DNA of 59,732 bases, from IMG/VR virus record IMGVR_UViG_3300040801_002535, one strand, 5' to 3'. The notes under the pieces were generated by a model. It saw nothing but the letters and a program-made list of their open reading frames with translations. It was not told the origin of the DNA and searched no databases. A program made the translations under genes and the position numbers. The DNA comes from a virus. Positions 6,578 through 22,023 of this stretch are shown here, piece by piece (within the stretch, counting starts at the first letter, position 1; every line of letters begins with the position of its first letter).

Positions 6578-7021
6578 ATGAGTATTTTAGGGACTATAGC
6601 AATGAGTGCTCTAGGTCCAGTTGCTGCTGTTGGTTTGAAAGTTGTAAAATCTAAACATTTTGCCAAGGCGCTAATCGTCCTAGCATTGGTAGCGATAGTC
6701 TTTTTCGGCATTCGATCATACCGAGCAATGGCAGCTGAATTGGCAGTAACCCAAGCAGATTTGTCTGACACAGAAGAGGCGTGGGCGCAGACCCAGCAAG
6801 AAGTCGAAGATGCCAATGCCGAATCAGCTCGGGTGCACCTGCTCCTCGCTAACGTAATCACGGATAAAGCCATACTAAAAAAGCACCTTGGAGATCGCCT
6901 TCGTAAGATTCGCGACCTAGAAGATAGCTTAGGAGAGAAAGATGAAGCGTTTAAGCAGTGCCTTGATGTTAATATCCCTGCTGATTACCTTGACAGCTTG
7001 TTCAGCACCGAAACGAATTAA
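6578..7021 (+). CDS. i-spanin (Rz-like)
   Basis: N-terminal TM (ALIVLALVAIVFFGI) followed by a charged coiled-coil region. The o-spanin gene is embedded out of frame at its 3' end. Confidence 0.75.
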   Translation: MSILGTIAMSALGPVAAVGLKVVKSKHFAKALIVLALVAIVFFGIRSYRAMAAELAVTQADLSDTEEAWAQTQQEVEDANAESARVHLLLANVITDKAILKKHLGDRLRKIRDLEDSLGEKDEAFKQCLDVNIPADYLDSLFSTETN

Positions 7022-7229
7022 AGCAGAGGTTGGCGAGCGCTCACGGCCAACACCACCCATTGCTTTAATGCAAGACTGCCACGCACCGAATCGTCCTCTG
7101 GATAGAACAGTTAGGGCGCAACTTGAGTATATTCCGATTGTTCTTGAAGCGCTCGGAGCATGTAATGTGGATAAAGAGAAGCTGCGCGAATGGGCTACTG
7201 GCAGCACTCGCGTACAAGGTGACCAGTAA
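6942..7229 (+). CDS. o-spanin (Rz1-like lipoprotein)
   Basis: Signal peptide with lipobox LTLTAC, Pro-rich mature part. Overlaps the i-spanin 3' end in another frame. AGGAGAG RBS. Confidence 0.75.
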   Translation: MKRLSSALMLISLLITLTACSAPKRIKAEVGERSRPTPPIALMQDCHAPNRPLDRTVRAQLEYIPIVLEALGACNVDKEKLREWATGSTRVQGDQ

Positions 7230-7347
7230 GCCGCACTCCATGCCGGTTGCAGGTTGCTTGTGCCTCGCGGCGTTTAAATTCTGGGCTCCAATCGTTGGTT
7301 GCCATGCACGCGTATTTGATTAGTTGGCGTAATTCCATTGCGGTCAT
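7195..7347 (-). CDS. Small hypothetical protein (50 aa)
   Basis: Too short for the ORF track. GGAGGCTCAA-ATG at 7347; product MTAMELRQLIKYACMATNDWSPEFKRREAQ... Its 3' end overlaps the convergent o-spanin gene by 35 nt. Confidence 0.4.
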   Translation of the reverse strand: MTAMELRQLIKYACMATNDWSPEFKRREAQATCNRHGVRLTGHLVRECCQ

Positions 7348-7359
7348 TTGAGCCTCCTT

Positions 7360-7539
7360 TTAGTTAGATTGGACCCAGCGGCCGTCAATAAGTTTGTACT
7401 CATTGAAGATGCAAGTTGGGTAAATAATGGTGGCCGAAGTGGCCCCGTTATGAGCAACTTCTTGCTCAAGGGCGTATTTGATTTTAGGGATGTTATTTGA
7501 GGTGATGAATAATTTATTGTTGACATAGCCTCTGACCAT
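7360..7539 (-). CDS. Small hypothetical protein (59 aa)
   Basis: Too short for the ORF track. AAAGGAGATTCAAA-ATG at 7539, immediately downstream of promoter 7570-7598; product MVRGYVNNKLFITSNNIPKIKYALEQEV... Confidence 0.55.
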   Translation of the reverse strand: MVRGYVNNKLFITSNNIPKIKYALEQEVAHNGATSATIIYPTCIFNEYKLIDGRWVQSN

Positions 7540-7569
7540 TTTGAATCTCCTTTGGTTGCTGTTAAATAG

Positions 7570-7598
7570 ATAATACCAAAACCTATTCGACTAGTCAA
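7570..7598 (-). promoter_or_regulatory. sigma70-type promoter (TTGACT-17-TATTAT)
   Basis: Minus-strand -35 at 7593-7598 and -10 at 7570-7575. Member of the conserved promoter family. Confidence 0.7.
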
Positions 7599-7633
7599 CA
7601 GAAAAAGAGAGTAAAACATAAAAGTTTTTGTTG

Positions 7634-7685
7634 CCCCTACCGCACCGCCCTTGCTCGCGGATCTCCGGCGGTAGGGGATTTTTTC
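7634..7685 (+). terminator. Rho-independent terminator for the rightward (late/lysis) transcript
   Basis: 10-bp stem cccctaccgc / gcggtagggg followed by attttttcc on the plus strand. Lies between the convergent arms. Confidence 0.6.
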
Positions 7686-7686
7686 C

Positions 7687-9693
7687 CTACACAGCTATTG
7701 CTTCCACATGACCCCAGTCAGGTCCAATTTCCCCGTCCGCCTTGATTGGGATTTTCAGCGGCAAAGCGGTTTCCATTATGTGCTGCATCTCCCTGAACGC
7801 CTCGTCCTTGCCGCCCGGATCACTGAAGTCCAATTCATCGTGGACGGTTAAGCGCGGGACTCCAGTCACATCAAAGATGCCATCTTTCCAGCATCTATAC
7901 ATCGCAAGTTTCATCATATCGGCCGCTGAGCCTTGAAGCCTTCTGTTCAGCGCTTTATGGGTGTAAGCCCTTCTGATCTGTCCGTAGGATGTTATTGCCT
8001 GCTGTAGTGGCAGTGCTATTGAATCTGAATTCCATTGGGTTGGCTCCCATAAATCGAACCGCGACTTGCGACCCATGATGGTTTCAATGACTCCGGTATT
8101 CTTGGCAATCTCGGTATAGTAATCCATAGTGGCAGAGGCGAATGGCACCCCTCGATGATATTCTTTGACTAGCGCCTTGCCATCTTTCAAACTCAGGCCA
8201 ATGGCTGCGGCAAGGGCTGGGACACCCATCCCATAGATCAGGCCGAAGTTGATATTCTTTATTGGTTTCCGCTCTATAAAGATTCCGGTTTCCCGCTTAA
8301 TTAGAGCCTGAATAAAATCGTGATAATCAATCGTCGGGTCGGCGTTAAACATTGCCCGAACCTTTTCGCCTTCCATCCCAACCGCGTCATGAATAAGGCA
8401 GCGGTATTCTATCTGACTGTAGTCATATTTGCGCCATGCTTCATGCCCATAATCCGGTATGAATATTCCCCTGACCATTGGCGCCCAGATGTCGTCACGG
8501 GATGGCAGGTTCTGGAGGTTCGGCGTGCTAGAGGAAAACCGCCCGCTTCGCGTTCCGCCCTCGTCCCCGCGCATGTTGTGGAATTGGCCGTACACTTTCC
8601 CGTTGACATGGGAGTTGAGAATGTAGCTTTCTACGAAGGTTCCTTTCAGCTTTTCGCACTTCCTGATCTCCCGAATGATATCTCCAATCGGGTGAACAAG
8701 CCCTTCTAGAAATGCCTTGGTGAAACTTGGCTGGCCTTCTGGGTATGAAGCCGTTGGTTTAGTTCTCGTGTAGGGTATATTTAGTTGGTTGAATGCTTTT
8801 TCGAGTTGATCCTTCTTACCGATATCGATTTCCCAACCGATTGTCTTATTCAACTTGTCTTGGGCAACCAGCGCTTGAGCGGAAAGGCTATCCGCTAGCT
8901 TTTCGGCCTTCTCGATGTCCACAGAAACGCCAGCATATCGCATCGCATTAAGCAAGTAAATAAGTCCGCATTCCATTTCGAAGACTTCCAGAAGCCCTTC
9001 TTCTCCCATCTTTTGATATAAAATAGGGGCCAAGCGGAGAGGCAAGTCGACATCGCTTTCAGCGTAAGGACCGCAAAGCCGAGGAGGGGTGCGGTAGATA
9101 TGTTTTCTTTGCTTCTCGGTAGGGTTCCCGCCAAACCAATCAGCCAACCATTCGTACATGAGCTCGCTGGTCTTGCCAGTGTTCAAATACTTCACACCAA
9201 GAATATCCAGAGCTACTTTTGCCCGTTCATCCAGAAGTGCTTCTGCAAACTGGACATCTACAAGTGCCCCTTTTACATTAACTCCCTCGTGCTGAAGCCA
9301 GCCGACATCATAAGCAAGATTGGCGCCGACCTTGGCTTGGCGAGGATCTTCGAGGGTGTCTTTTAACCAGCGAATAACTTGTGCTGGGTCCATGTTGTCT
9401 TCTGGCTCTGTTTCATGGCGCATAGGGAAATACCAACGGTGCCCGCTTTCGACACCAATGGATACGCCAACCATGTGTCCAACGCCACGCGCCCATCCGG
9501 GACCATGTTCTAGAAGCTCGGGGTCCCAAGTCTCGACATCGATCGCAATAACACGCTCCCGAGAAAGGTCCGGAAAATCAGTTGGTGTTTTCCAACCGGT
9601 TTCTGGGATTGCCGGCATCGGCCTTTCAATAGCGGAGCGTTTACCAGTGGACGGTTTATCCTCCCAGAAAAGCCCTATAGAATCAGCCCTCAT
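7687..9693 (-). CDS. polA: Family A DNA polymerase with 3'-5' exonuclease domain
   Basis: Exo motifs IAIDVETWD and NLAYD. Pol motifs DYSQIEYR (A), RKPIKNINFGLIYGMG (B) and VHDELD (C), plus TRSGRFSSSTPNLQNLP. Confidence 0.92.
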   Translation of the reverse strand: MRADSIGLFWEDKPSTGKRSAIERPMPAIPETGWKTPTDFPDLSRERVIAIDVETWDPELLEHGPGWARGVGHMVGVSIGVESGHRWYFPMRHETEPEDNMDPAQVIRWLKDTLEDPRQAKVGANLAYDVGWLQHEGVNVKGALVDVQFAEALLDERAKVALDILGVKYLNTGKTSELMYEWLADWFGGNPTEKQRKHIYRTPPRLCGPYAESDVDLPLRLAPILYQKMGEEGLLEVFEMECGLIYLLNAMRYAGVSVDIEKAEKLADSLSAQALVAQDKLNKTIGWEIDIGKKDQLEKAFNQLNIPYTRTKPTASYPEGQPSFTKAFLEGLVHPIGDIIREIRKCEKLKGTFVESYILNSHVNGKVYGQFHNMRGDEGGTRSGRFSSSTPNLQNLPSRDDIWAPMVRGIFIPDYGHEAWRKYDYSQIEYRCLIHDAVGMEGEKVRAMFNADPTIDYHDFIQALIKRETGIFIERKPIKNINFGLIYGMGVPALAAAIGLSLKDGKALVKEYHRGVPFASATMDYYTEIAKNTGVIETIMGRKSRFDLWEPTQWNSDSIALPLQQAITSYGQIRRAYTHKALNRRLQGSAADMMKLAMYRCWKDGIFDVTGVPRLTVHDELDFSDPGGKDEAFREMQHIMETALPLKIPIKADGEIGPDWGHVEAIAV

Positions 9694-10640
9694 TCACGAA
9701 CTCCCATCATGACGCCTCGTATTTTATCCCCGAAGAAAGCGCAGGGTTTTGGATAGGCATCCATATCAAATGTTGTGGCAACACCTTTTAACAGGCAAAG
9801 AAATTGAGCGGAAAAGCAACCTTCTTCTGGCATCCCTGCGACCTCGACGATAGCGCCTTCTATGCCGCTCGGGGTAGTAGATATCTTATCACCAAGAAAA
9901 TAGAGCCTAGATATTTCATCCCCGAACTGGGAGAGGTCTTCAACCGCCTCATGGAAGCCTTCCGGTATTGGCGTTTGGTTGGATTCTTTGTTAAGAAGCG
10001 AGGCGATATCCGGCCACTCAGTATCTAGCATCTGGCAGCGCAGCCAGCGGTCGCCGGCAAAGTGGAAAGTCATATTCGATTCGGAAACTTGTATTGCCAC
10101 CGGTTCTTCCTTGATCCTGAGGATTTCAGCAATGGCCTTTTGAGGAATACATACCTCGAATGGAAAAGGTGATTCCAGCCAGTGCTCTACAAGGCACGCA
10201 TTATTCGTCGCAAATGCCGATTGCCCTCGAAATAGAATCCCGCAAGCCCACGGCCTTGAAGCATCGTCAGCTACAAATGGTGCCAGCTTTTTGAGGACGC
10301 CAAGCACCCCGCTCGGGATTTCAATGAGCTCTCCCTCTGGTTCGATGACTGGGAAAGCCTCTTCAGAGCAGTCAATAAAGGCTTTGAAGGACCCTGATTT
10401 TACCACAAGTTTGCCATTATTTCCTACATGTAAAGAGATTGTTTTCTTACAGGTGCGGATTGCCTTTACGAATGGCGTTGCTTTCGGGGTGACATTCAGG
10501 TCCAGTTCAATCGGCCCGCATAGCGCCATGGACCCGTTGAAGCCTTTGATTTTGTGATCTTCAATATGGAAGTGGGTAAGCTCGGGTGAGAAATCCTTTT
10601 TAGCGACTGCCCCTTGGACAAAACGAATTGAATCAAGCAT
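9690..10640 (-). CDS. Sliding-clamp-like protein (DnaN/beta-clamp-like)
   Basis: 316 aa with repeated beta-rich halves and N-terminus MLDSIRFVQGAVAKKD, typical of phage beta-clamp-like proteins. Its stop overlaps the polA start (ATGA) and its start overlaps the dpdA stop (TAATG). Call by resemblance only. Confidence 0.5.
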   Translation of the reverse strand: MLDSIRFVQGAVAKKDFSPELTHFHIEDHKIKGFNGSMALCGPIELDLNVTPKATPFVKAIRTCKKTISLHVGNNGKLVVKSGSFKAFIDCSEEAFPVIEPEGELIEIPSGVLGVLKKLAPFVADDASRPWACGILFRGQSAFATNNACLVEHWLESPFPFEVCIPQKAIAEILRIKEEPVAIQVSESNMTFHFAGDRWLRCQMLDTEWPDIASLLNKESNQTPIPEGFHEAVEDLSQFGDEISRLYFLGDKISTTPSGIEGAIVEVAGMPEEGCFSAQFLCLLKGVATTFDMDAYPKPCAFFGDKIRGVMMGVRE

Positions 10641-11545
10641 TAGAATAATCCCATCTGATCTTCGACATAGACCGGCGATTTGATTTTAGTGAGCTCAGCC
10701 CCGAGCAGGGTGAAGCTCATTAGGTTAAAAGTCCATCGAGCAATATAGTTGTTTTGCATGCGGTCTATATCGAAGCCTAAGTCTTCTATGATCTTAATAA
10801 CCGCTTGCTTCTGGTCTTCCGGTAAAGTGTTAAGATGCTGGTTGTCCTTTTTGGCCGATGGCGAATTGTTCGAAACGGACAGCGCCTTCCAATGCCAAGG
10901 TAAGAGAATGCTACCATTCGCCGCCTGCTGTACCCATGACGAGGAATCGACCGAATACCAAGGATAGCGCTTCATCAAGGAAATGGTCGTAAGACCAAAA
11001 CCATGAACACGTAATTTCGGGCGCCCTTGGTCGTCTGTTAGATGATCCTTCCAAATTCTGTCCAACCAGAGGCGAAGCTGTGGAGTGGAAATTGGAACCA
11101 TACCACCGAGGGTGATGTATTCATAATTCTCAACATACCAATCGAGGTACCTTTCATCTTCCCCGTAATGGAAACAAGGCAACGGATTTGTCCCGAGCTG
11201 CTCCATACGCTTCTGATTCTGCCAAGTAAGCAGCGGGTCGCCGATGCCGTCGAGCACCGAAGCGACTTCAATAATGTCGTGGTTCTTCCGGATGTAGGCG
11301 CAGTACTTTTCGATGTCTATGGTAGCGCCCAAAGAGAAGGCGGAGAATGCGCCAGAGTCAAGGAAAACCTTCTTCCCGTCCTTTCTGAGGCGCCGTACAA
11401 TATTCTCCTTATTGATATAATGATAAGACTCCAGATCGTTCTCCACCCCTAGGAGCGCAGCCTTTTCAGTTGGCTCCATCCTGTGGTAAATGTTCCCGTC
11501 TATGTGGAGGCTTGCCGAGTAAAGACCCGCCAAGAATAGTCTCAT
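10640..11545 (-). CDS. dpdA: DNA-guanine transglycosylase DpdA (TGT-like; inserts 7-deazaguanine into DNA)
   Basis: Motifs FLDSGAFS, ITLGGMVP, VHGFGLT and YSVDSSSW are characteristic of phage DpdA. Co-located with preQ0 synthesis genes. Confidence 0.85.
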   Translation of the reverse strand: MRLFLAGLYSASLHIDGNIYHRMEPTEKAALLGVENDLESYHYINKENIVRRLRKDGKKVFLDSGAFSAFSLGATIDIEKYCAYIRKNHDIIEVASVLDGIGDPLLTWQNQKRMEQLGTNPLPCFHYGEDERYLDWYVENYEYITLGGMVPISTPQLRLWLDRIWKDHLTDDQGRPKLRVHGFGLTTISLMKRYPWYSVDSSSWVQQAANGSILLPWHWKALSVSNNSPSAKKDNQHLNTLPEDQKQAVIKIIEDLGFDIDRMQNNYIARWTFNLMSFTLLGAELTKIKSPVYVEDQMGLF

Positions 11546-11733
11546 ACGAATTTAATCTCCCTATTTAATTTGCCAGAATGCCAACCCTTGACATTGAATT
11601 GAAATCTCCCTGCCCACGGGCGCGAAGGCTTACCGTTAACCGTAAACTCCTTTGAATGGGTAAGCTGGGTAACGGGGCCAGCAAGTTTTACGACACTAAA
11701 GCCCCACGAGCGCATAGTAGGTATCGAGGTCAT
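11542..11733 (-). CDS. Small hypothetical protein (63 aa)
   Basis: AAGGAGG RBS and ATG 11733. ATGA overlap with the upstream gene and with the dpdA start. Confidence 0.55.
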   Translation of the reverse strand: MTSIPTMRSWGFSVVKLAGPVTQLTHSKEFTVNGKPSRPWAGRFQFNVKGWHSGKLNREIKFV

Positions 11734-12065
11734 GCTACCTCCTTCTTTACAATTAATGATTTGGGTGGCAGGATTGTCCAGTCCCAGTAAGCAGGCTCTT
11801 CCCCGCAGCGCATCTCGCCAATGCAGAAGCAAATCCACTCTTCACAAAGGTAGCTGACATCAGAATAGTCATGGTCAAGGCCACCAGCGTCCACATAAAG
11901 GTTCCATTCTTGGCCGTAAACAGAAGGGATAACACATTCAATCGGCTCGATAATTCCATGCTCTGCTTGGTAGCGCACAGACTGGCCAGTCCATTGAATC
12001 CGTTGCTTTGTCCAGATTTGCTCTCCGCGCTTGCCAGTTTTAGGATCGAACTTGAATACCTTCAT
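11730..12065 (-). CDS. Hypothetical protein (111 aa, Cys-containing)
   Basis: AAAGGAGATTTAAA-ATG at 12065, downstream of promoter 12110-12138. First gene of the dpdA-clamp-polA transcription unit. Confidence 0.65.
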   Translation of the reverse strand: MKVFKFDPKTGKRGEQIWTKQRIQWTGQSVRYQAEHGIIEPIECVIPSVYGQEWNLYVDAGGLDHDYSDVSYLCEEWICFCIGEMRCGEEPAYWDWTILPPKSLIVKKEVA

Positions 12066-12109
12066 TTTAAATCTCCTTTATGAGTTGGTTCCGTTCCCCC
12101 TGATATAAA

Positions 12110-12138
12110 GATTATACCAAAACGGGGGAACGGAGTCA
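12110..12138 (-). promoter_or_regulatory. sigma70-type promoter (TTGACT-17-TATAAT) bracketed by a 10-bp inverted repeat
   Basis: -35 at 12133-12138, -10 at 12110-12115. ccgttccccc (12090-12099) and gggggaacgg (12123-12132) flank the -10. Confidence 0.7.
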
Positions 12139-12152
12139 ACTGAAAAAGAGAC

Positions 12153-12617
12153 TTAAACTTTATTTTTATTGATGAATGGCAGCACCAAGATACTAGAGAC
12201 AAACTTGATTACGCCCTGCCCTATGATTGCCGGCCAGTTCCAGCCGAATAGCAGAGGGACGAAAATGAGGCTGTCAATCGGGGTTCCAAATATATTGGAG
12301 ACCAGAACCCGCTTGCGGAACGAACCGCTCATTTTGGTGTAAACAATCCAGTCGATAACCTCAGATGCAAGGAACGCTGAAACTGAGGCGAAGGCAATGT
12401 CCCAGCTGAACAGCGCTGTCAGGATAGAAGCAGCGCCCATGAAGTACCAGCACTTCCATTTCCCGAAGCGCTTCTGCACGAAATCCCGTGCGGAGAAAGT
12501 GAGGCCGACAACAGCAGCCCCAGCAGGGAAAGCAATCGGCCCCAAGTGAATGATTCCGTATTGCATGACCAATAGGTTTGCCACAACGATGCTTGCTAGA
12601 TAAAAGAATGCGCTCAT
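12153..12617 (-). CDS. yhhQ: YhhQ/VUT-family queuosine-precursor (preQ0/preQ1) transporter, short form
   Basis: 154-aa polytopic membrane protein. Motifs FSARDFVQKRFGKW, ASEVIDWIVY and SNIFGTPIDSLIF resemble the YhhQ/DUF165 family. Confidence 0.7.
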   Translation of the reverse strand: MSAFFYLASIVVANLLVMQYGIIHLGPIAFPAGAAVVGLTFSARDFVQKRFGKWKCWYFMGAASILTALFSWDIAFASVSAFLASEVIDWIVYTKMSGSFRKRVLVSNIFGTPIDSLIFVPLLFGWNWPAIIGQGVIKFVSSILVLPFINKNKV

Positions 12618-12623
12618 AATATT

Positions 12624-13547
12624 TTAGCCCTTTCTGGCTAGGGCCAAAAACTCAGCCCGCGTAGATGGTTGGTCTTTGAAGACCCCGTGCATAGCTGAGG
12701 TAATTGTGGAAGAACCAATCTTCTCTATCCCCCTGCTTTCCATACAGAAATGACGCGCCCGAATAACGACCCCGCATCCGAGAGGTTGAAGATGCTCCCT
12801 TAAAGCATTCGCGACTTGATTTGTCAAGCGCTCTTGGACTTGCATTCGGCGGGCAAAGACATCTAGCAAACGAGGGATCTTTGATAGGCCGATTATTTTT
12901 CCGTTCGGGATATAGCCGATGGTGGCGGTCCCGAAAATTGGTGCCATGTGATGCTCACAATGGCTGAAGAAAGGGATGTCTTCTACAACCACCATTTCGT
13001 CGCAGCCCTCGGCGCCATCTTCAAATACCTTCAATACATCTTTCGGGTCTTGGTCGTAACCTCGGTACCAGTGCGCCATTGCTTTGGCGACCCGAGCAGG
13101 CGTCTCCTGCAAACCTTCGCGGGAAACATCTTCCCCGATAAACTCCATAATACGACGGATGTTATCCTCAATAGTTTCCGCTGGTCCTTCGAGGCTTTTC
13201 TCCCAAGGGAAAACAATCCATTTACCGATATAATCGAGATCGCTTTTCTTATCTATTAAGGTTACGAAAACGCGGTTTGGATAGCGGTCCGAAAAGGTCC
13301 GCATTGTCTCGCCAGAATCTAGCAAGTCATCAATGAAGAAGTTAGCACTTTCTGGGCTGTCGACAATTTTATACGCGCAGCGCAGGCGGGCAGCGATCGC
13401 GTACATGGCTGGGATGCCACCACGAGGAATCCCATAAAGATAGACATTTTTATCCCGCCTTCTGGAAACAATATGATCAATTTCAGCGGCGGCAGATGCT
13501 GCCAGATTACTAACATCTTGTTGAGTCAATAAACATTTTTCCGACAT
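12624..13547 (-). CDS. folE: Fusion protein: type I phosphoribosyltransferase domain plus GTP cyclohydrolase I
   Basis: N-terminal ~115 aa: YGIPRGGIPAMYAIAARL, PRPP loop FFIDDLLDSGETM, WIVFPWE. C-terminal part: FFSHCEHHMAPIFG, IGLSKIPRLLDVFARRMQVQERLT (FolE type I). Confidence 0.88.
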   Translation of the reverse strand: MSEKCLLTQQDVSNLAASAAAEIDHIVSRRRDKNVYLYGIPRGGIPAMYAIAARLRCAYKIVDSPESANFFIDDLLDSGETMRTFSDRYPNRVFVTLIDKKSDLDYIGKWIVFPWEKSLEGPAETIEDNIRRIMEFIGEDVSREGLQETPARVAKAMAHWYRGYDQDPKDVLKVFEDGAEGCDEMVVVEDIPFFSHCEHHMAPIFGTATIGYIPNGKIIGLSKIPRLLDVFARRMQVQERLTNQVANALREHLQPLGCGVVIRARHFCMESRGIEKIGSSTITSAMHGVFKDQPSTRAEFLALARKG

Positions 13548-13552
13548 AACAG

Positions 13553-14053
13553 TTAATCTCCCAATTCAAAGGCCGCTGAACACTTGGCCGTTTCTTCAAT
13601 GACTACTTTAATAAGTTGAGCTCGGCTATCCCGAAGCACCAGAGGGCCGACTTCCATGACCAAGTATTCCGCCATGTTTTCAGCAGTCGGATTAAAGGGG
13701 AGGTAAACAATGCCCGAAAGGAGGTCCATGGTTGCTTCACTATCCTGTGCCAAGTAACCTTCTGAGTGCGGGTCAGCGCAGCACACAGTTTTGAGCAAAG
13801 GGTCTTGATCCCATGCCAAGAACTTATGGTCCCACTCGAGCTCTAACCATTCGCACAGCTGGGATTTAATTACGCCGAAGTCGATAACACGGCCGACATC
13901 GTCGAGGGCACCGGTAGTTGCATTAGCCTTGGCAGCGACCGTAAAATGAACGCGGTAATTGTGGCCATGAAGGTGCTCGCATTTCCCGCCTTGACCTACT
14001 ACGCGATGCCCAGCGCAGAAGTCATGATAACGCGTAGCTGTAATCCGGCTCAT
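13553..14053 (-). CDS. queD: 6-carboxy-5,6,7,8-tetrahydropterin synthase
   Basis: HDFCAGHRV and CEHLHGHNY motifs. ATGA overlap with queC. Confidence 0.88.
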   Translation of the reverse strand: MSRITATRYHDFCAGHRVVGQGGKCEHLHGHNYRVHFTVAAKANATTGALDDVGRVIDFGVIKSQLCEWLELEWDHKFLAWDQDPLLKTVCCADPHSEGYLAQDSEATMDLLSGIVYLPFNPTAENMAEYLVMEVGPLVLRDSRAQLIKVVIEETAKCSAAFELGD

Positions 14054-14835
14054 AACTCGTCTCCAAAATCCATCGGCATAGTCTCACCGGCTTTGAGGTA
14101 GTTTAAGGATTTCGGCAGGTCCATGAGACCTTCCGAAACAGCGCGCAAGATCAACGGGTCAGGTAAGCCAGCTTCTAGGAATCCTTTTGCCCGTAGCAAG
14201 GTCGCATGGTCTTTTCCGATTGGAGGGTATGCGCCATCATAAGCGGTGTGTGTCCAAGCCATCGCCGCCCAGCAACGGGGACTGCCATGAGCCATATGAA
14301 CTGATTCAGCTTTAGTCAAATTCATCAACGGGGTGTGAATTTTCAGCTTCCGGAATTCATCGCTGTCATCATAACCCAGACCCTCGCGAATAGCATCTTG
14401 GGTCGCATTAATAAAGTCTTGCCGGCAATCTGGGTACCCGCCTGAATCCTCTTCGCATACTCCAGTAACAAGATTGGTTGAGCCAATGGAGTAAGCGTAG
14501 TTGGCCGCGAGGGTTAAGAATAAAAGATTCCGACCTGGAACAAAGGTCTTTTCCAGACCGCCCGGAAGTGAATATTCATCGGCGTATTGCTCTAATTCAT
14601 TCGAGCTTACGAGGGGTGAGGTGCTCCGCAAAATGGGACCGACCTCAATAACCACATGTTCTTCGACGCATCCTAGCATGGCAATCTTCCGTGCAGCATC
14701 AAGCTCAATAGCATGGCGCTGACCGTAATCGAAAGTAATTGCGTATACTTTTTCGAAGTGTTCCTTTGCCCAGAACAGACATGTAGTGGAATCTTGTCCG
14801 CCTGACAAGACTACGACTGCTGATTTCGCCTTCAT
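14050..14835 (-). CDS. queC: QueC-family 7-cyano-7-deazaguanine synthase homologue lacking the Zn-cysteine cluster
   Basis: VVLSGGQDSTTC (PP-loop), FDYGQRH, FVPGRNLLFLT and CEEDSGGYPDCR are all QueC-like. The Cys-x8-CxxCxxC region is replaced by HTAYDGAYPPIGKDHATLLRAKGF, and there is a ~35-aa C-terminal extension. Confidence 0.85.
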   Translation of the reverse strand: MKAKSAVVVLSGGQDSTTCLFWAKEHFEKVYAITFDYGQRHAIELDAARKIAMLGCVEEHVVIEVGPILRSTSPLVSSNELEQYADEYSLPGGLEKTFVPGRNLLFLTLAANYAYSIGSTNLVTGVCEEDSGGYPDCRQDFINATQDAIREGLGYDDSDEFRKLKIHTPLMNLTKAESVHMAHGSPRCWAAMAWTHTAYDGAYPPIGKDHATLLRAKGFLEAGLPDPLILRAVSEGLMDLPKSLNYLKAGETMPMDFGDEL

Positions 14836-14838
14836 TTT

Positions 14839-15528
14839 TTACTCCAAGTCTAGAAGTTTATGGAGCTGTAGGCATACTGTATACCCATGCTCCAGACAGC
14901 TTTCAACAACGGCTTCACGGGCCAAATCATTATGCAGCTGAACCCCGTGATCGATAGGCTGTAAATAAATGTTGCCATCGAAGTTTTCTGGTGGTCGCGC
15001 TGGAATATGATTATAGCCGAGAACTGTAATTGGCAGGCCGTCATCAATGGACAGCTGCTGGAAATCGCCGACATATTTATATGCCGTAATATGTTCCAGA
15101 AGCTCCTCTGCGATGACTGGGGTTTTCGGGCTGCAGACTACGATGACATCATTGTAATCTACAAGCGGGTCGTAGGTTGTTCCGTTAGTCTCAATCTGGA
15201 CAAGGAAACCTTCGCCCTGCAATGCTTCTATCAGCGGACCGATAGACTGTCGAAATGGTTCGCCACCAGTAATAACACAAACATAATTACGATGCGATGG
15301 CGGGACAAGCTGACGAGCTCTAAGCGCTAGACCGTCAGGGTGATGTGTGGCGACATGGCCGTACTTTGTGTCGCACTCTGGACAGGCTAGATTACATCCA
15401 GCCAAGCGAATGAAAACCGCTGGTACTCCCGCTAGCGGGCCTTCTCCCTGTATGGAATAGAAGACTTCGTTAACCGAAAGCTGGTACGGTTTGCCCCGTT
15501 CGATTTGACGGGCCATTTGTGTATTCAT
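14839..15528 (-). CDS. queE: 7-carboxy-7-deazaguanine synthase (radical SAM)
   Basis: FYSIQGEG and RLAGCNLACPECDTKY motifs. AAAGGAGG RBS. Confidence 0.9.
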   Translation of the reverse strand: MNTQMARQIERGKPYQLSVNEVFYSIQGEGPLAGVPAVFIRLAGCNLACPECDTKYGHVATHHPDGLALRARQLVPPSHRNYVCVITGGEPFRQSIGPLIEALQGEGFLVQIETNGTTYDPLVDYNDVIVVCSPKTPVIAEELLEHITAYKYVGDFQQLSIDDGLPITVLGYNHIPARPPENFDGNIYLQPIDHGVQLHNDLAREAVVESCLEHGYTVCLQLHKLLDLE

Positions 15529-15551
15529 ATTTCCTCCTTTAGGTTTAAGGC

Positions 15552-15580
15552 ATTATACAAAAGGTGAGTAGGTAAATCAA
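15552..15580 (-). promoter_or_regulatory. sigma70-type promoter (TTGATT-17-TATAAT) for the que operon
   Basis: -35 at 15575-15580, -10 at 15552-15557, just downstream of terminator 15604-15630. Confidence 0.65.
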
Positions 15581-15603
15581 GGAAAAAGTAGAACATAAGG
15601 CAT

Positions 15604-15630
15604 AAAAAAAGAGGGCACCGAAGCGCCCTC
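15604..15630 (-). terminator. Rho-independent terminator
   Basis: On the minus strand: gagggcgc-TTCG-gtgccctc followed by TTTTTTT. Confidence 0.8.
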
Positions 15631-15657
15631 TTTCTTTGCTGAAGAAGAATTTATTGA

Positions 15658-15978
15658 TTACGCTTCTGGCGCGTCCTCAAGGGTCTCTTCGACTGGTGCT
15701 TCGACAGGAGCATCGGCAGGAGTGTCAGTGCCTTTCAGGCCGTTGAATTTGCGCCAGCGGCCGTACTGGGTAGCGGCAGTAGCGGCATTGATGTCCTCAG
15801 CGAGGGCTGTATCGATAACGGCCTTGCGCTTGGCAGGTGCGCCAGCTTCTTCCGAAATGGCGTCAGCGATTTCAAAAACACGACCGGTTTTGGTGCCGAC
15901 CTTTGGGCGCGTGATTCCGTTTTGGACAATCTTTTCTGCCTTGGCTTCTTTGACTGGTGCTGCTTTTTCTTCGCTCAT
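15658..15978 (-). CDS. Paralogue C of a small family with a shared C-terminal ~45-aa domain
   Basis: 106 aa with AAAGGAGAC RBS and its own promoter. C-terminal TGRVFEIADAI...RKAVIDTALAEDINAATAATQYGRWRKFNG aligns with 16059-16652 and 16709-17140. Confidence 0.7.
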   Translation of the reverse strand: MSEEKAAPVKEAKAEKIVQNGITRPKVGTKTGRVFEIADAISEEAGAPAKRKAVIDTALAEDINAATAATQYGRWRKFNGLKGTDTPADAPVEAPVEETLEDAPEA

Positions 15979-16026
15979 AATCTGTGTCTCCTTTTTGGGG
16001 TGGTTGATTGTTAACTGAATAGGGAG

Positions 16027-16055
16027 ATAATACCTTATCCCCCTATTCAAGTCAA
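16027..16055 (-). promoter_or_regulatory. sigma70-type promoter (TTGACT-17-TATTAT)
   Basis: -35 at 16050-16055, -10 at 16027-16032. Overlaps the stop of the upstream paralogue. Confidence 0.7.
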
Positions 16056-16058
16056 GGG

Positions 16059-16652
16059 TTAAATAGATCCTTGCGCTTTTTTCCACTTGCCGAATTGGGT
16101 CGAGGCTGTCGCCTTATTAACGCCTTCTTCGACACACTTATCAATGACCAATTTGCGGTCTGGAATAACCCCGCCATTGGCAAGAGTCATCTCGTCGCAG
16201 ATATCCCAAACTGCGCCAGTGGCTGTTCCTTCTTTTGGCCGTGCTACTTCGCCGGTCTTTGCTGGCTTGGCAACCTTCGCCTTCGGAGTTACAGCCGCCT
16301 TGATTTCTTCAGCAGAGGAACCCGCTGGTGCGTCGTCGTAACCACTATTCTTGACGAGGGTTTCAAGCTCTTTTAAAGAGGATTCGTCTGGGGTAATCTC
16401 CAAGGCGATAGCAAGGCATTTCTGGACAAGCTCGCCGTAATCTTCTGGAGGTGGTGTCTGGGTATGATTCCAAACGATATATTGAAGCTGTTCCTTTTCG
16501 AGGCGGGTGAACGCCTTGGCATTGAGCTCTGGGCCAATGACGGTACGGCCAGCAACCTTCTGAAGTTTACTGAGCTCGATGATTTGGCGAAGCTCGGCGA
16601 CACGCGGCATGCAAGTTTGCTCAAGGTTTGTAATATCAATTAGTACATACAT
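16059..16652 (-). CDS. Paralogue B of the shared C-terminal domain family
   Basis: 197 aa with AAGGAG RBS. C-terminal TGAVWDICDEM...RKLVIDKCVEEGVNKATASTQFGKWKKAQG. Confidence 0.7.
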   Translation of the reverse strand: MYVLIDITNLEQTCMPRVAELRQIIELSKLQKVAGRTVIGPELNAKAFTRLEKEQLQYIVWNHTQTPPPEDYGELVQKCLAIALEITPDESSLKELETLVKNSGYDDAPAGSSAEEIKAAVTPKAKVAKPAKTGEVARPKEGTATGAVWDICDEMTLANGGVIPDRKLVIDKCVEEGVNKATASTQFGKWKKAQGSI

Positions 16653-16708
16653 AGCTTTTCTCCTTAATAGGGGGACCGAAGTCCCCCCTTAGAATTAGTG
16701 TCGAGGGC

Positions 16709-17140
16709 TTATTCAGCGTCAGTTGCTGGGGTGGCTTCGGTAGCCTTTTTCCACTGCTGATATTGGGTACGGGCGGTGTAAAAGGCGATGCCTGATTGGA
16801 CGCAGGCTTCGATTACATCCTTGCGGCGAGCGCCTACCATGGCGTCGCAGATGTTCCATACTTCCGAGCAAGGGCCGCTGATGTCGCTTTTGCGCTTGAT
16901 GATTTTAGCTGGCTTGGTTTCTGCCAAGTCTTTAACTTCTTCCTCAACGACTGGAAGCAAAGTTTCAATGACTTGGAAATCCTTGAGTTCGACTGGTGCT
17001 TCTTCGCCAGCGACGATTGTAATCTCGAGGGTGTAACCATCCGCGAATGGGGTAGCGAAGGCGGTCTCGACTACTTCGAATTTCTTGATGATGTTTTTTG
17101 CTGCGCGGTTTGCATTGGCTTTAGTGGTGTAAGTTTTCAT
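16709..17140 (-). CDS. Paralogue A of the shared C-terminal domain family
   Basis: 143 aa with AAAGGAGATTCACA-ATG at 17140. C-terminal CSEVWNICDAMVGARRKDVIEACVQSGIAFYTARTQYQQWKKA. Confidence 0.7.
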   Translation of the reverse strand: MKTYTTKANANRAAKNIIKKFEVVETAFATPFADGYTLEITIVAGEEAPVELKDFQVIETLLPVVEEEVKDLAETKPAKIIKRKSDISGPCSEVWNICDAMVGARRKDVIEACVQSGIAFYTARTQYQQWKKATEATPATDAE

Positions 17141-17188
17141 TGTGAATCTCCTTTGTTTTTCGGTTGGTGTTCTGTTCCTGTTAAATAG

Positions 17189-17217
17189 ATAATACCACTG
17201 GAGGAGAACCAATGCAA
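17189..17217 (-). promoter_or_regulatory. sigma70-type promoter (TTGCAT-17-TATTAT)
   Basis: -35 at 17212-17217, -10 at 17189-17194, followed by the conserved ctatttaacaggaac leader. Confidence 0.7.
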
Positions 17218-17264
17218 CTCTTTTTTTCGATTTTTATCATTTTTCTGCACTTTTATTTGATCCC

Positions 17265-17459
17265 TTAAAAAGGAATGAGGTCGTCCCACGCTGGGCACCC
17301 GCAGATAATAACTTCGAGCGGAGGCTTCTGCGTCGCCAGATTGCAGCCAAGAATATCGCGCTCGAAATAGGCGCAGGTTAAACATGTGGTCAATTCGCCC
17401 GCATCAATTAAGCGCTTGTGCAGCTCCGACCGCTCCGAAACTGGAACCTGTGAAATCAT
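17265..17459 (-). CDS. Small Cys-rich protein ending in an SSB-tip-like DDLIPF
   Basis: 64 aa. GGAGG lies 9 nt before ATG 17459. Cys pattern CLTC...C...CGC. C-terminus WDDLIPF-stop. Overlaps the helicase 3' end by 56 nt in another frame. Confidence 0.55.
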   Translation of the reverse strand: MISQVPVSERSELHKRLIDAGELTTCLTCAYFERDILGCNLATQKPPLEVIICGCPAWDDLIPF

Positions 17460-19086
17460 ATGCTTTTACCTCCGGATAAGGTTTCTTGAGCCAGACCCGA
17501 ATGTGGGTTGGTACTGCTACTCGGTCCATCCCTTTCAGGGCATCGGCTGTTGTTGAGGGTGGCTCCTCGGCGCTTCTTTCCCGCCACCATTCGCGAGCTT
17601 TTTTGCCGGCGAAGTTTTCATGCTCGAGGCATACCCACTCTTTGAATATACGCAATCCACAATAATAAGTCACCTGAATAGCGGGAGGGCGGTTCTGTTT
17701 TCTGTGCTCGGTATAAATGACCTTGGTCACCGGAAATGTTTCAATGACCGGCATTGAGGATTTCATCACTTCATCCGTATAGGCCGTGCCGTGAATCTTC
17801 AGTTCCCTTGGGAATTCAGCCCCGCACTCAATGCAGACCCTTGCGCTGGCATGATTATAAGTATTGCAAGCCTCGCAGATTCTGACTGGCGCCACCCCGC
17901 CACCCTTCGCCCCTTTTCGCTTTGGCAAGACTGGATCATTTATCGGGCCAAGCCTTCTGGTATTACCAGCGAAGTCTAGGACAAGGCAATTTTGCTTATG
18001 ACTAGCCGCCATCGCCTCGTGGCGCCCATTGATTGTCGACAGGTCAAAGCCATCCTCGAAAACAGGTCTGGTTCCCCTTCCCAGCATTTGCACCCATAAT
18101 CCCGGCGATGAAGTTGGGCGCAAAGCAGCAATTAAATCAATTCCGGGAAAGTCGAATCCTGTGGTCAGAACATTGTTATTCACAGCGGCCTGATACTTGC
18201 CTGCTTTATAGTCGATTAGCGCTTGGTCCCGTTCTTGGGCGGACATTTTCGAATGGATACTAACACAGGAAATATTGAACGTATCTAGCATTTCGCAAAT
18301 ATTATTGGCATGATCAATGCCGGCTGCGAATATCAGCCAATGCTTACGCTTGGAACCGTACTGAATTATTTCCTGAACAGCTTGGTAGGTCAGCTGCTCC
18401 TTGTCTACCGCTGCTTGCATCTGGGAGGTAACATATTCCCCGCCTTGAATCTTGACATCAGACATGTCGAATTCCATGTCCGTCCTTTTGGCGGTGAGCG
18501 GTGCCAAATAGGCTTCTGCAACCAATTTATTGAAGGCATCAATTCCGGTAATATCATAGCAGACATCATCGAATAAATCTCCGTCCGTAAGATGGCCAAG
18601 CCCTAGTCGGTAGGGTGTAGCCGTAAAACCGATGACCTTGAGATTTGGATTTATTTCTTTTAGCTCTTTAATAAATTTCCGATACATGGTAGATGCTTTT
18701 GGGCTCACCAGATGACATTCATCTATCAGAATTAAGTCTACCTTGCCGAACAGGTGGGCATTGCCAGATACAGAGCCAATGCCGCCAAAGGTGATTCGGC
18801 AATGGGTTTCCCTGCGCTTGAGTCCAGCTGAAAATATCCCAGCCGGAGCGGTTGGCCATAAGGTCACCAGCTTTTCGAAGTTCTGTTCAATGAGCTCTTT
18901 AACATGTGTAAGCATCATTATGCGCTGGTCATAAAAGGCCGTACAAGCGCCCTTTACGAAATCGCCAATGACCAAGCTCTTTCCGGTCCCAGTCGGCATT
19001 GCCACAATCGGGTTCCCAGTATTGCCATCGGCATAGTAATCATAGATACTTTTTACAGCATCATTCTGGTAATCACGTAATATCAA
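17404..19086 (-). CDS. SF2 DEAD/DEAH-box DNA helicase with C-terminal zinc ribbon
   Basis: MPTGTGKS (Walker A), DECH (motif II), FTATP, QMLGRGTR (motif VI), CEACNTYNHASARVCIECG. TTG start. Confidence 0.88.
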   Translation of the reverse strand: MILRDYQNDAVKSIYDYYADGNTGNPIVAMPTGTGKSLVIGDFVKGACTAFYDQRIMMLTHVKELIEQNFEKLVTLWPTAPAGIFSAGLKRRETHCRITFGGIGSVSGNAHLFGKVDLILIDECHLVSPKASTMYRKFIKELKEINPNLKVIGFTATPYRLGLGHLTDGDLFDDVCYDITGIDAFNKLVAEAYLAPLTAKRTDMEFDMSDVKIQGGEYVTSQMQAAVDKEQLTYQAVQEIIQYGSKRKHWLIFAAGIDHANNICEMLDTFNISCVSIHSKMSAQERDQALIDYKAGKYQAAVNNNVLTTGFDFPGIDLIAALRPTSSPGLWVQMLGRGTRPVFEDGFDLSTINGRHEAMAASHKQNCLVLDFAGNTRRLGPINDPVLPKRKGAKGGGVAPVRICEACNTYNHASARVCIECGAEFPRELKIHGTAYTDEVMKSSMPVIETFPVTKVIYTEHRKQNRPPAIQVTYYCGLRIFKEWVCLEHENFAGKKAREWWRERSAEEPPSTTADALKGMDRVAVPTHIRVWLKKPYPEVKAYDFTGSSFGAVGAAQALN

Positions 19087-19088
19087 TT

Positions 19089-20000
19089 TCAGACCTTATT
19101 ATGAAAGCACTTATCCGCGCAGTATAAACCGCATCCCGCCTCTTGATCATCCTTGCTTAGCAGCCTAGAATCCAAAGCGCAGATCCAACGGTTTTCGTGC
19201 TCGCTTGGACTTGACTGAAAACATGTCCGACAATTCTCTTCGACAGGTGCGCTGAAATGGCAGACCTGTTTGTAATCGCAAAAAGAACAGGCGAACCAGC
19301 TCGGGCTACTATTGATCTTTGGTGGCGGCTCGGTGGTGTAAATGATTTGAAAAGCACGCTGAATATATTGGTTTGCTACCCGCTCGTCGTATTCAATTAT
19401 CTCGGCGTAAAGATCATCGTCATTTTTATTTACGCACATATAAATAGCGTACAGCAGACCCATCTTTTGCATGTAGATTTGCATCTGAACAAAGTGCTCA
19501 TACTTACATTCTATTACGCCAGACTTAACGAGCTTTTTGAAGCCCTTTTCATTGCTGGTTTTATACTCAGTCAAGCAGGGGGTATTCGGTGGCAGGTCTG
19601 GGATGCCGATTGCAACTCCATCGATAGCGCTTCCGAAATGGCCGTTGTGATCTTGCATTCTAAATTGCCCGCCATCTTCGGTGACAGCAAATACTTGGCA
19701 ATCAATCATTTCCAGCATAGCAAGGAAGCGCGGCTCTTCGAGGTGACCTCGGTTAAACAAGCGAAGAATCCGTCCCTCGAAATGAGGCTTGACTGCCCAG
19801 TGAAAGTTATACCAAAGCTCCCGAGCGCAATCCCTGCCAATCATTGAAGCCCCGAGGTGGGACCGGAAAGAAGGTTCCCCCTGACGGAAGGGATCATCTG
19901 CCATCATCATATGCTTTTTGAGAAGCCCTCTGAAACTGGACCCTTGGTCGGCATCAATAGCAGAGTCAATCGCCGAGAGTGTTTTGGTTGCTAAGCGCAT
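19089..20000 (-). CDS. PD-(D/E)XK nuclease (Cas4/RecB-like recombination exonuclease) with C-terminal Cys cluster
   Basis: GSAIDGV ... LTEYKTS (D...E.K core), QMQIY, and C-terminal Cys residues (CSFCDYKQVC...CRTC). Lies in the recombination module. Confidence 0.7.
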   Translation of the reverse strand: MRLATKTLSAIDSAIDADQGSSFRGLLKKHMMMADDPFRQGEPSFRSHLGASMIGRDCARELWYNFHWAVKPHFEGRILRLFNRGHLEEPRFLAMLEMIDCQVFAVTEDGGQFRMQDHNGHFGSAIDGVAIGIPDLPPNTPCLTEYKTSNEKGFKKLVKSGVIECKYEHFVQMQIYMQKMGLLYAIYMCVNKNDDDLYAEIIEYDERVANQYIQRAFQIIYTTEPPPKINSSPSWFACSFCDYKQVCHFSAPVEENCRTCFQSSPSEHENRWICALDSRLLSKDDQEAGCGLYCADKCFHNKV

Positions 20001-20521
20001 GGATTTCTCCGAAGTCTATAATAGGTTGCAAGGAATTGCGCCTCAGCATATTTTGGGTTTCTGGGAACGAGAGTCATAGCGTGCGGCTGAAGATTGTGGA
20101 AAACAGGCGGCTCCATTTCAGGCATTAAATCCCGAATCTCGGTAAGCAGCGCGATGTTATCTGCCACATGGACGGAAGGATCAAATACCTCTGGCATATA
20201 GAATTTTCTTCGCATTGCGATTTCAAGCGTGTTTTCAATATCTCTATATTCAGGCATCATTCTTTTCAAAGGTCTGACCATGTCGCCTATAACCGCTTCG
20301 GACATATCATGGAGCAGCGCTTGCATCTGAAATTCTTCTGGGACCAAATCAGCGCAGAAAACAGAATGTTGTGCCACAGAATAGAATTCATCGCATTGCC
20401 CAGTGAACCGGCAAATCTTAGAAAGGGCAGAGGCTATAATCTCAATGCTAATTTCGCTGGCATCGAAGTTAAGTAGATCGACCGATTTCCCACCGGCAAG
20501 ACTAACTGTATAAGGGGACAT
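19991..20521 (-). CDS. HD-domain phosphohydrolase (YfbR-like 5'-deoxynucleotidase family)
   Basis: YSVAQHS and LLHDMSEAVIGD motifs. ATG 20521 lies 7 nt after AAAGG. Confidence 0.75.
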   Translation of the reverse strand: MSPYTVSLAGGKSVDLLNFDASEISIEIIASALSKICRFTGQCDEFYSVAQHSVFCADLVPEEFQMQALLHDMSEAVIGDMVRPLKRMMPEYRDIENTLEIAMRRKFYMPEVFDPSVHVADNIALLTEIRDLMPEMEPPVFHNLQPHAMTLVPRNPKYAEAQFLATYYRLRRNPCA

Positions 20522-20530
20522 GTGCAAACC

Positions 20531-20561
20531 TTTGAAAAGGAACCCCGCCGAAGCGGGGTTC
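20531..20561 (-). terminator. Weak terminator / attenuator hairpin
   Basis: On the minus strand: gaaccccgc-TTCG-gcggggttc followed by CTTTTC. Lies between the DUF669-like and HD genes. Confidence 0.45.
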
Positions 20562-20575
20562 GAGGAAAGAGAATC

Positions 20576-21271
<696 letters not shown>

Positions 21272-21274
21272 TTT

Positions 21275-21964: not shown

Positions 21965-21994
21965 GGTAACCTCCTAATGTTAAAGTGAAAACCC

Positions 21995-22023
21995 ATTATC
22001 TATTGCCCAGCAAACAAATACAA
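21995..22023 (-). promoter_or_regulatory. Possible weaker sigma70-type promoter (TTGTAT-17-GATAAT)
   Basis: -35 at 22018-22023, -10 at 21995-22000, upstream of the Sak4-like gene. Confidence 0.4.

Follow-up and report, generated by a model that had tools for sequence, protein, structure and literature searches.

The 59,732-nucleotide viral stretch IMGVR_UViG_3300040801_002535 (the window, by which we mean the whole stretch of DNA that was analyzed) encodes a protein in which an N-terminal phosphoribosyltransferase (PRT) domain precedes GTP cyclohydrolase I (FolE) within a single open reading frame (ORF). The fusion lies in a full deazaguanine cluster, with FolE, QueD, QueE, QueC, and DpdA encoded together at 10640-15528 on the minus strand in the order QueE-QueC-QueD-(PRT-FolE)-YhhQ-DpdA, a module order as in the Queuovirinae (PMC10484667). 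Its ATG falls 5 nucleotides past the stop codon of queD; the end of that gene contains a GGAG, a few nucleotides 5' of the ATG. A type I PRT and FolE in one ORF were what the initial annotation of the stretch had read from the letters alone; all of the motifs it quoted were present, and translation verified their coordinates. An assembly or frameshift artifact was ruled out, as the ORF was continuous and the best listed homologues had the same length and architecture: the best 120 matches listed were all 288 to 319 amino acids (aa) long and covered 88 to 100% of the query, i.e., the fused form. An identical protein (P0121) was present in a public collection, on a 59732-bp contig, where it was named merely "GTP cyclohydrolase I." The AlphaFold model of the full-length fusion had a pLDDT of 95.8 and a pTM of 0.85.

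As judged by sequence and predicted structure, the N-terminal 118 residues are a minimal type I PRT resembling xanthine-guanine phosphoribosyltransferase (XGPRT; Gpt in Escherichia coli). Searches with the single domain sequence count against such an assignment: the score for PF00156 was below the Pfam threshold (23.9 versus 26.3 bits), and the match to the Gpt model NF006613, at 1.8e-5, reached 24.3 bits versus a cutoff of 138. XGPRT structures were matched by the single sequence at an E value of 0.012. A profile of nine family members matched XGPRT structures at 2.4e-5, with the next matches being purine PRTs down to an E value of ~0.2 and with phosphoribosyl pyrophosphate (PRPP) synthetase and other matches appearing just near an E value of ~1. 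The AlphaFold model of the domain (121 sequences; pLDDT 93) had the alpha/beta core expected of the PRT fold, with a central parallel beta-sheet (strands 35-39, 70-76, and 93-99), flanking helices (three in the model), and short strands at 4-6, 59-61, and 110-112. Its top Foldseek match was E. coli XGPRT (probability 1.00; E value, 2.8e-6; TM ~0.6), other 6-oxopurine PRTs came next, and of the 96 PDB fold matches at an E value of ≤0.001, the 50 listed were purine PRTs or PRT-fold proteins. The PRT assignment is firm, despite the subthreshold single sequence, because the family profile and the AlphaFold/Foldseek comparison both match XGPRT.

The same picture emerged across the wider family. An exhaustive profile search recovered 1604 cluster representatives at an E value of ≤1e-10. 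No Pfam, NCBIfam, or PHROGs model of its own was found for this family, the members' best matches being the Gpt model or phrog_8995; the window domain matched phrog_8995 at 1.5e-7 within the full ORF and at 7.9e-7 alone. The Gpt model NF006613 was the best NCBIfam match for every family member tested, always far under the cutoff, and PF00156 did pass for some homologues (P0005, P0134, and P0140). A ComF-type or a pyrimidine/adenine PRT was ruled out, since the significant profile and fold matches were all to XGPRT or to hypoxanthine-guanine phosphoribosyltransferase (HGPRT).

The residues retained by the domain were compared with those of Gpt (Table 1). Twelve positions were identical to Gpt in all aligned sequences (R42, G43, G44, D73, D74, D77, G79, T81, K100, W110, P114, and W115), and these 12 were invariant or nearly so in 100 fusions as well as in the viral, Dehalococcoidia, and picocyanobacterial groups; the Gpt counterparts are D88, D89, D92, G94, and T96 in loop III, then K115, and then W134, P138, and W139, with E116 approximating Gpt D140. 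For viruses, conservation was scored in the 80 IMG/VR loci with the greatest similarity to the domain, a sample biased toward relatives of the fused query. The residues of loop I were kept in 76 to 80 of these 80 viral loci, in 24 of 24 Dehalococcoidia loci, and in 13 of 13 cyanobacterial loci. The PRPP motif of loop III reads F70-F-I-D-D-L-L-D-S-G-E-T81, in which D73, D74, G79, and T81 were invariant; D77 was present in 79 of the 80 viral loci and was replaced by Glu in the Prochlorococcus members. By analogy with HGPRT, D73 and D74 would correspond to the residues for ribose and Mg, D77 to the N7 general base, and S78-G79-x-T81 to the site for the 5'-phosphate; we take the counterpart of D77 to be the catalytic general base toward N7 in HGPRT and XGPRT. 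K100 was conserved in 71 of 80 viral, 24 of 24 Dehalococcoidia, and 13 of 13 cyanobacterial members. In loop IV, W110 (the aromatic stacker), I111 (backbone bonding), and the acidic E116 match Gpt W134, I135, and D140, and both W110 and P114 were found in all 80 viral loci. In HGPRT, loops I and III hold the two phosphate ends of PRPP, the lysine bonds O6/N7, and loop IV stacks on and hydrogen-bonds the purine (PMC2228302). The retained residues are just the ones by which a 6-oxopurine PRT is defined. The initial annotation had left it to profile and structure searches to decide between an HGPRT/XGPRT type and a ComF-like one and had named the lack of PRPP- or purine-binding residues as evidence against its proposal; the searches point to the 6-oxopurine (XGPRT/HGPRT) type, and all recognizable PRPP- and base-binding residues were conserved family-wide.

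Table 1. Positions of the PRT-FolE fusion, its parts, and other genes of interest in the window
Feature	Position	Strand	Basis or remark
PRT-FolE fusion ORF	12624-13547	minus	307 aa; coordinates include the stop codon; uninterrupted reading frame
Mini type I PRT domain, XGPRT-like	13194-13547	minus	Residues 1-118
Loop I, P41-R42-G43-G44, pyrophosphate binding	13416-13427	minus	Equivalent to Gpt R37-G38-G39, invariant in Gpt alignment
PRPP motif (loop III), NFFIDDLLDSGET = N69-FFIDDLLDSGET-81	13305-13343	minus	Gpt alignment; family conservation
K100, end of strand VFVTLIDK	13248-13250	minus	Equivalent to Gpt K115 and HGPRT Lys157; invariant in both family alignments
Loop IV/hood remnant, W110-I-V-F-P-W-E116 (WIVFPWE)	13200-13220	minus	Equivalent to Gpt W134-IEQPW-D140
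Interdomain linker, L119-EGPAET-125	13173-13193	minus	pLDDT drops to ~85; length variable among homologues
FolE domain	12627-13172	minus	Residues 126-307; C197-E-H-H200 at 12948-12959
QueD (CPH4 synthase), directly upstream	13553-14053	minus	PF01242, 3.8e-25
QueC (preQ0 synthase)	14050-14835	minus	PF06508, 1.8e-54; TIGR00364 above cutoff
QueE (7-carboxy-7-deazaguanine synthase, radical SAM)	14839-15528	minus	QueE NCBIfam models, 1e-22 to 1e-23, under cutoffs
YhhQ/Vut_1-like membrane protein, 154 aa, putative queuosine-precursor transporter, directly downstream	12153-12617	minus	PF02592, 1.5e-11; TIGR00697, 8.9e-9; phrog_4899, 6.5e-30
ORF of 111 aa between the YhhQ-like gene and DpdA	11730-12065	minus	No Pfam or PHROG match
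DpdA-type DNA guanine transglycosylase	10640-11545	minus	phrog_887, 2.5e-74; weak NCBIfam DpdA match
YfbR-like HD-domain 5'-deoxynucleotidase	19991-20527	minus	PF12917, 6.5e-6, barely over cutoff

The C-terminal half is an ordinary zinc-dependent FolE that uses GTP and starts preQ0 synthesis. It matched PF01227 at 4.4e-71 (fusion residues 126-304) and scored above the cutoffs of both TIGR00063 (231.9 versus 181.6 bits) and NF006825 (240.8 versus 174 bits). Against E. coli FolE (1FBX), 177 residues were aligned at an offset of -87 with a net length difference of 0. At that offset, C197, H200, and C268 fall on C110, H113, and C181, which we take to be the zinc ligands, and R152, K155, S222, K223, R226, and R272 fall on E. 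coli-equivalent positions that presumably form the triphosphate pocket. A FolE adapted to take GMP directly, which would have made the two domains consecutive, was ruled out by the absence of any net length difference and the presence of all basic triphosphate-pocket residues.

The fusion recurs among viruses. FolE was matched in 392 GenBank phage records, 34 of which reached at least 80% coverage of the fusion; the annotated ones among the 34 are all labeled merely "GTP cyclohydrolase." Carriers include Pseudomonas Nipunavirus phages (NP1, PaMx25, JG012, JG054, and Quinobequin P09), Vibrio phages (VpKK5, 033B, and 1.207.B), and further phages of Stenotrophomonas, Xanthomonas, Sphingomonas, and Variovorax. 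For one of them, Quinobequin P09, virion DNA nucleosides have been analyzed by high-performance liquid chromatography and mass spectrometry, and the phage was described with a 2'-deoxyarchaeosine gene cluster (PMC6884629 supplement). PRT and FolE shared one ORF in 77 of the 80 IMG/VR loci; at least one Que or DpdA gene was present in 78 of the 80, and DpdA was detectable in 64. The initial annotation had suggested a survey of deazaguanine phages for the same fusion and had linked the domain to DpdA and preQ0 synthesis; both the recurrence of the fusion (34 GenBank phages and 77 of the 80 best IMG/VR loci) and a tie to deazaguanine/DpdA clusters in viruses (78 and 64 of 80, as above) were borne out. 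Among the longer family members (247 to 583 aa), all that gave a Pfam hit were PRT-FolE, in some cases carrying inteins or HNH insertions or truncated by contig ends; no fusion partner other than FolE was found among those examined, and two (P0251 and P0267) gave no Pfam hit.

Selfish elements target the PRT-FolE gene. Some fusions have their FolE half interrupted by HNH-containing inteins (P0241, P0260, P0317, and locus L017), and at L176 a NUMOD4 homing endonuclease gene (7477-8034) lies between separate PRT and FolE genes, which suggests that endonuclease insertion is one way in which the fusion gets split.

We propose that the PRT domain salvages guanine, especially guanine released by DpdA, to GMP and thereby restores GTP for the fused FolE, a reading to which we assign a probability of roughly 0.45. 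The domain would bind PRPP-Mg with its PRGG and DDxxDSGxT loops and a 6-oxopurine through K100, W110-I111, and E116; guanine and PRPP would then give GMP, with hypoxanthine or xanthine possibly accepted too, and host guanylate kinase and nucleoside diphosphate kinase would raise GMP to GTP, the substrate of FolE. DpdA would expel one guanine for each preQ0 inserted and would be the main new source of free guanine in the phage, so that the PRT could recover the expelled purine and, at the same time, take away a competitor of preQ0 at DpdA. The genome holds 29,355 G:C pairs; partial replacement multiplied by burst size would amount to a substantial release of guanine. Because two host kinase steps would separate the PRT from FolE, substrate channeling is not expected, and the fusion more likely enforces equal, co-timed expression of its two halves. 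The identity of the domain, the conservation of its residues, and its genomic associations were observed, and from these we infer catalysis, the substrate, and the link to DpdA-derived guanine.

Several points weigh against guanine salvage, and the main structural one lies within the domain itself. The beta-hairpin of the flexible loop II, which type I PRTs have between core strands two and three, is missing: Gpt has 17 to 23 extra alignment columns there, and the model shows just the short strand 59-61 at that position. About 10 residues of the hood are also missing relative to Gpt. Loop II has been linked to transition-state formation in HGPRTs (PMC2228302); because its hairpin is missing, full catalytic competence cannot be assumed. 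The domain is, moreover, dispensable, because close relatives with the same cluster order and Escherichia phages occur without it: Vibrio phage vB_VpaS_ALK has a plain FolE, and none of 41 Escherichia phage records reached 80% coverage of the fusion. GMP needs guanylate kinase and nucleoside diphosphate kinase to reach GTP, so the fused domains do not act consecutively, and the known hosts presumably have guanine PRTs of their own already.

The missing loop II and the nonconsecutive steps would both suit a ligand sensor or assembly module, non- or weakly catalytic, that binds PRPP, guanine, GMP, or (p)ppGpp and tunes the activity or oligomerization of FolE. PRT-fold regulators exist in PurR and PyrR. 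Such a role would also fit FolE being the sole fusion partner found, a full-length pTM (0.85) that suggests a fixed arrangement of the domains, the appearance of a ppGpp-bound PRT-like protein (5vog) among the fold matches, and a FolE-centered function in Dehalococcoidia, where the fusion also occurs (see below). We consider it unlikely: family members that stand free without FolE nearby argue against sensing as the general function, and the catalytic-type residues, D73-D74 and D77 included, are invariant, although the latter is a weak point in that it also fits ligand binding alone.

Cellular genomes add to the case against a role tied to DpdA. In a scan of one genome per species, the fusion was found in 24 Dehalococcoidia assemblies, many of them complete chromosomes (L098-L136 and L155; match near 10001-10900), in a conserved, housekeeping-like synteny with Ada, an MA-family peptidase, cyclophilin, and enoyl-CoA hydratase. 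Within 10 kb of these fusions, neither Que nor DpdA genes were present, and because Dehalococcoidia have the fusion without DpdA nearby, DpdA-released guanine cannot be its general reason. Prochlorococcus and Cyanobium encode a free-standing mini-PRT instead. In Prochlorococcus (L113, 9872-10767), this gene overlaps by 4 bp a gene of the PF05014 nucleoside 2-deoxyribosyltransferase family, and a uridine-kinase/deoxynucleoside kinase-like gene follows 1 kb downstream; from its gene content, the locus looks like a small base and nucleoside salvage operon, apparently uncharacterized.

Free-standing members also occurred in phages. Ten on long contigs were looked up, of which six were in que clusters and four elsewhere. 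Within que clusters, a separate PRT gene adjoins FolE in L007 and L173, shares a cluster with a nearby FolE in L175, L176, and L178, and in L179 is found between QueE and DpdA in a QueD-QueE-PRT arrangement, with no FolE or QueC detected in 12 kb around the PRT. A separate XGPRT-like gene, gp211, is also directly upstream of FolE in Flavobacterium phage immuto_2-6A, whose DNA carries fdPreQ1 (PMC10516641). Elsewhere, one member sits between helicase and DnaB-like genes, and two (L174 and L180) are in a replication module with genes for a nucleoside 2-deoxyribosyltransferase-family protein and a YfbR-like deoxynucleotidase. The fourth, on phage contig L009 (7291-8426), is preceded at ~340 bp by a gene whose product has an Acb2/Tad1 hairpin domain (the anti-CBASS/anti-Thoeris sponge family); que genes are absent within 8 kb of it. 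Neither these four phage members nor the Prochlorococcus copies had que genes detected around them, a further point against salvage coupled to DpdA. The PRT is more than an add-on to FolE, given that L179, Prochlorococcus, and several phages retain it without FolE. The sponge gene beside the L009 member would be in keeping with counter-defense or some other role, such as consuming or sequestering a nucleotide signal or protecting against defenses that manipulate PRPP or purines; we regard this as highly improbable, the neighborhood being single and anecdotal and the near-exclusive partnership with FolE being left unexplained.

The same contexts are compatible with the proposed chemistry serving a generic supply, in which the guanine-nucleotide pool is fed from host nucleic-acid turnover and DpdA-derived guanine is not special. 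The 24 Dehalococcoidia chromosomes, with their housekeeping synteny and no Que or DpdA gene within 10 kb, argue for it, as do the free-standing members in phage replication or nucleotide-metabolism modules and in Prochlorococcus, where no que genes were detected. It is nevertheless a doubtful account: the viral domain is almost always found within DpdA clusters, and L179 keeps the PRT beside DpdA though FolE has been lost. Since the GTP demand of a phage FolE exists just for DpdA-dependent modification, this reading and that of DpdA-linked salvage are hard to separate.

An alternative substrate must also be weighed. The purine-PRT homologue TubE, which is encoded with FolE, QueD, and QueE homologues, was shown experimentally to be specific for 7-carboxy-7-deazaguanine (CDG) plus PRPP, and not for guanine (PMC6112128). 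That precedent counts against guanine as the base and allows that the domain is a 7-deazaguanine PRT like TubE/ToyH, converting preQ0 or CDG and PRPP to a ribonucleotide that kinases, ribonucleotide reductase, and polymerase would carry along a route parallel to DpdA. Both preQ0 and CDG share the 6-oxo/2-amino face of guanine and would be recognizable by K100 and loop IV, and the QueD-QueE-PRT arrangement of L179, with no QueC detected, has a composition like that of the CDG pathway. In Cellulophaga phage phiST (L092, 8743-12839), the PRT gene gp064 is followed by gp065 (weakly deoxynucleoside monophosphate kinase-like), an uncharacterized gene, and the gene for the large subunit of ribonucleotide reductase, an order that would suit a route from base to deoxynucleoside triphosphate. 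The DNA of phiST contains 7-deazaguanine (PMC10516641). We nonetheless rate a deazaguanine substrate as quite improbable. The N7-directed D77 is kept, although N7 is just what a 7-deaza base lacks; Prochlorococcus members without a deazapurine context have identical base-contacting residues; most loci, like the window, encode DpdA, whose substrate is the free base; and no GMP-reductase-like or other tailoring enzyme was found among the 18 window ORFs scanned. The field, in addition, concludes that insertion follows replication in all known cases (PMC10516641). Were such a substrate used, some DpdA phages would also make deazaguanine nucleotides, for incorporation at replication or another nucleotide-level use, contrary to purely postreplicative insertion; by analogy with TubE this is conceivable, and the odds are long.

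Taken together, the recurring partners of the PRT were FolE, a GTP consumer, and enzymes that release or exchange bases, namely, DpdA and the PF05014 family. More broadly, the family resembles a "base catcher" that goes along with such enzymes of purine-base release or exchange. Conversion of guanine (or another 6-oxopurine) to GMP for FolE is the best-supported reading because of these recurring partners and because the 6-oxopurine residues are kept. The initial annotation had gone further and proposed a closed guanine salvage loop around DpdA. In favor of that loop are the purine type of the PRT and its tie to DpdA clusters in viruses; against it are the missing loop II, the nonconsecutive steps, the TubE precedent, and a lack of specificity for DpdA, given the Dehalococcoidia fusions with no Que or DpdA gene nearby and the free-standing members around which no que genes were detected. 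We put the loop forward as a plausible and reasonable hypothesis and not as a finding.

Other features of the cluster and the genome are as follows. The YhhQ-like protein matches the models of queuosine-precursor transporters over just their C-terminal half to two-thirds; with it, the phage both makes preQ0 and may import it. A yhhQ gene is known in phage CAjan (PMC10484667). At the position of the 111-aa ORF, phage NP1 has a homing endonuclease, and in Vibrio phage 033B and MMDA13, FolE and DpdA are direct neighbors. Past DpdA are genes for a sliding-clamp-like protein and a family A polymerase. At the other end, just upstream of QueE, three paralogous ORFs on the minus strand (15658-16086, 16059-16652, and 16709-17212) have in common a C-terminal region of ~50 to 80 aa (BLASTP, 1e-6 to 1e-16); the one that was tested matched no Pfam family, and related phages also have two to four hypothetical genes upstream of QueE. 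Besides the YfbR-like gene, no guanylate kinase, PRPP synthetase, or other salvage gene was found by Pfam in the 18 window ORFs. The 117-bp ends of the window (1-117 and 59616-59732) are identical, which makes it a circularly closed phage genome, complete or terminally redundant, of ~59.6 kb. It had no near relative among GenBank phages in a megablast search with positions 7000-27000.

The initial annotation's author knew of no description of such a salvage loop, and the literature agrees insofar as no paper mentioning the PRT-FolE domain was found. The term "phosphoribosyl" appears nowhere in the main texts of PMC6884629, PMC10516641, and PMC10484667, nor in the supplements of PMC6884629, and no relevant paper joining DpdA, deazaguanine, or preQ0 with a phosphoribosyltransferase was found; subscription papers lay outside the search, so a passing mention is possible. 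The minimal, loop-II-less XGPRT-like family and its fusion to FolE appear to be new; the chemistry proposed for them is conventional. Phage 7-deazaguanine DNA modification has been treated as a matter of five proteins (FolE, QueD, QueE, QueC, and DpdA), to which the PRT adds an overlooked sixth component, hidden in the "GTP cyclohydrolase" genes of at least 34 GenBank phages and hundreds of metagenomic viruses. If it does salvage guanine, it would bear on the fate of the guanine that DpdA expels and on how the phage pays for modification in GTP, which is most relevant where every G is replaced. A large mini-XGPRT family without a loop considered catalytically important also bears on PRT enzymology and annotation.

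Among known systems, the domain is closest to E. coli Gpt/XGPRT (1NUL, 1A95-1A98, and 4JLS) and Yersinia pestis XGPRT (5XTK and 6KP5), its best profile and fold matches. Gpt and the domain have in common the RGG loop, the DDxxD[ST]GxT PRPP loop, the lysine after the fifth strand, and the W-I-x-x-P-W-[DE] loop; they differ in that the domain has ~118 residues versus 152, has an identity of ~20 to 25%, is fused to FolE, and is without the loop II beta-hairpin and the ~10 hood residues that Gpt has. The C-terminal 182 residues of the fusion align end to end with canonical FolE (E. coli 1FBX and Thermus thermophilus 1WM9), with zinc and substrate residues kept, whereas canonical bacterial and phage FolE proteins (189 to 221 aa) have no PRT domain. 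Gat-QueC, a glutamine amidotransferase joined to QueC in phage 9g-like clusters, is likewise an accessory domain on a core preQ0 enzyme in the Queuovirinae (PMC6884629 and PMC10484667); Gat-QueC changes the end product from dPreQ0 to dG+ and is well described, whereas PRT-FolE goes unmentioned in those two papers. The XGPRT-like PRTs of immuto_2-6A (gp211) and phiST (gp064) also belong to phages with deazaguanine DNA and are unfused, in contrast to the window domain; gp064 is near full-length Gpt-like (142 aa, PF00156 above cutoff, and 138 of 159 Gpt model positions) and adjoins genes of nucleotide metabolism rather than FolE. Finally, the TubE/ToyH systems (tubercidin and toyocamycin) resemble the present cluster, as a gene-cluster analogy only, in encoding a purine-type PRT together with GTP cyclohydrolase I, CPH4 synthase, and CDG synthase (PMC6112128). 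TubE, from an actinomycete, is a free-standing protein of 194 aa whose secondary-metabolite cluster includes downstream reductase, decarboxylase, and Nudix enzymes and lacks a transglycosylase (PMC6112128), whereas the PRT of the window is a 118-aa domain fused to FolE and encoded beside DpdA.

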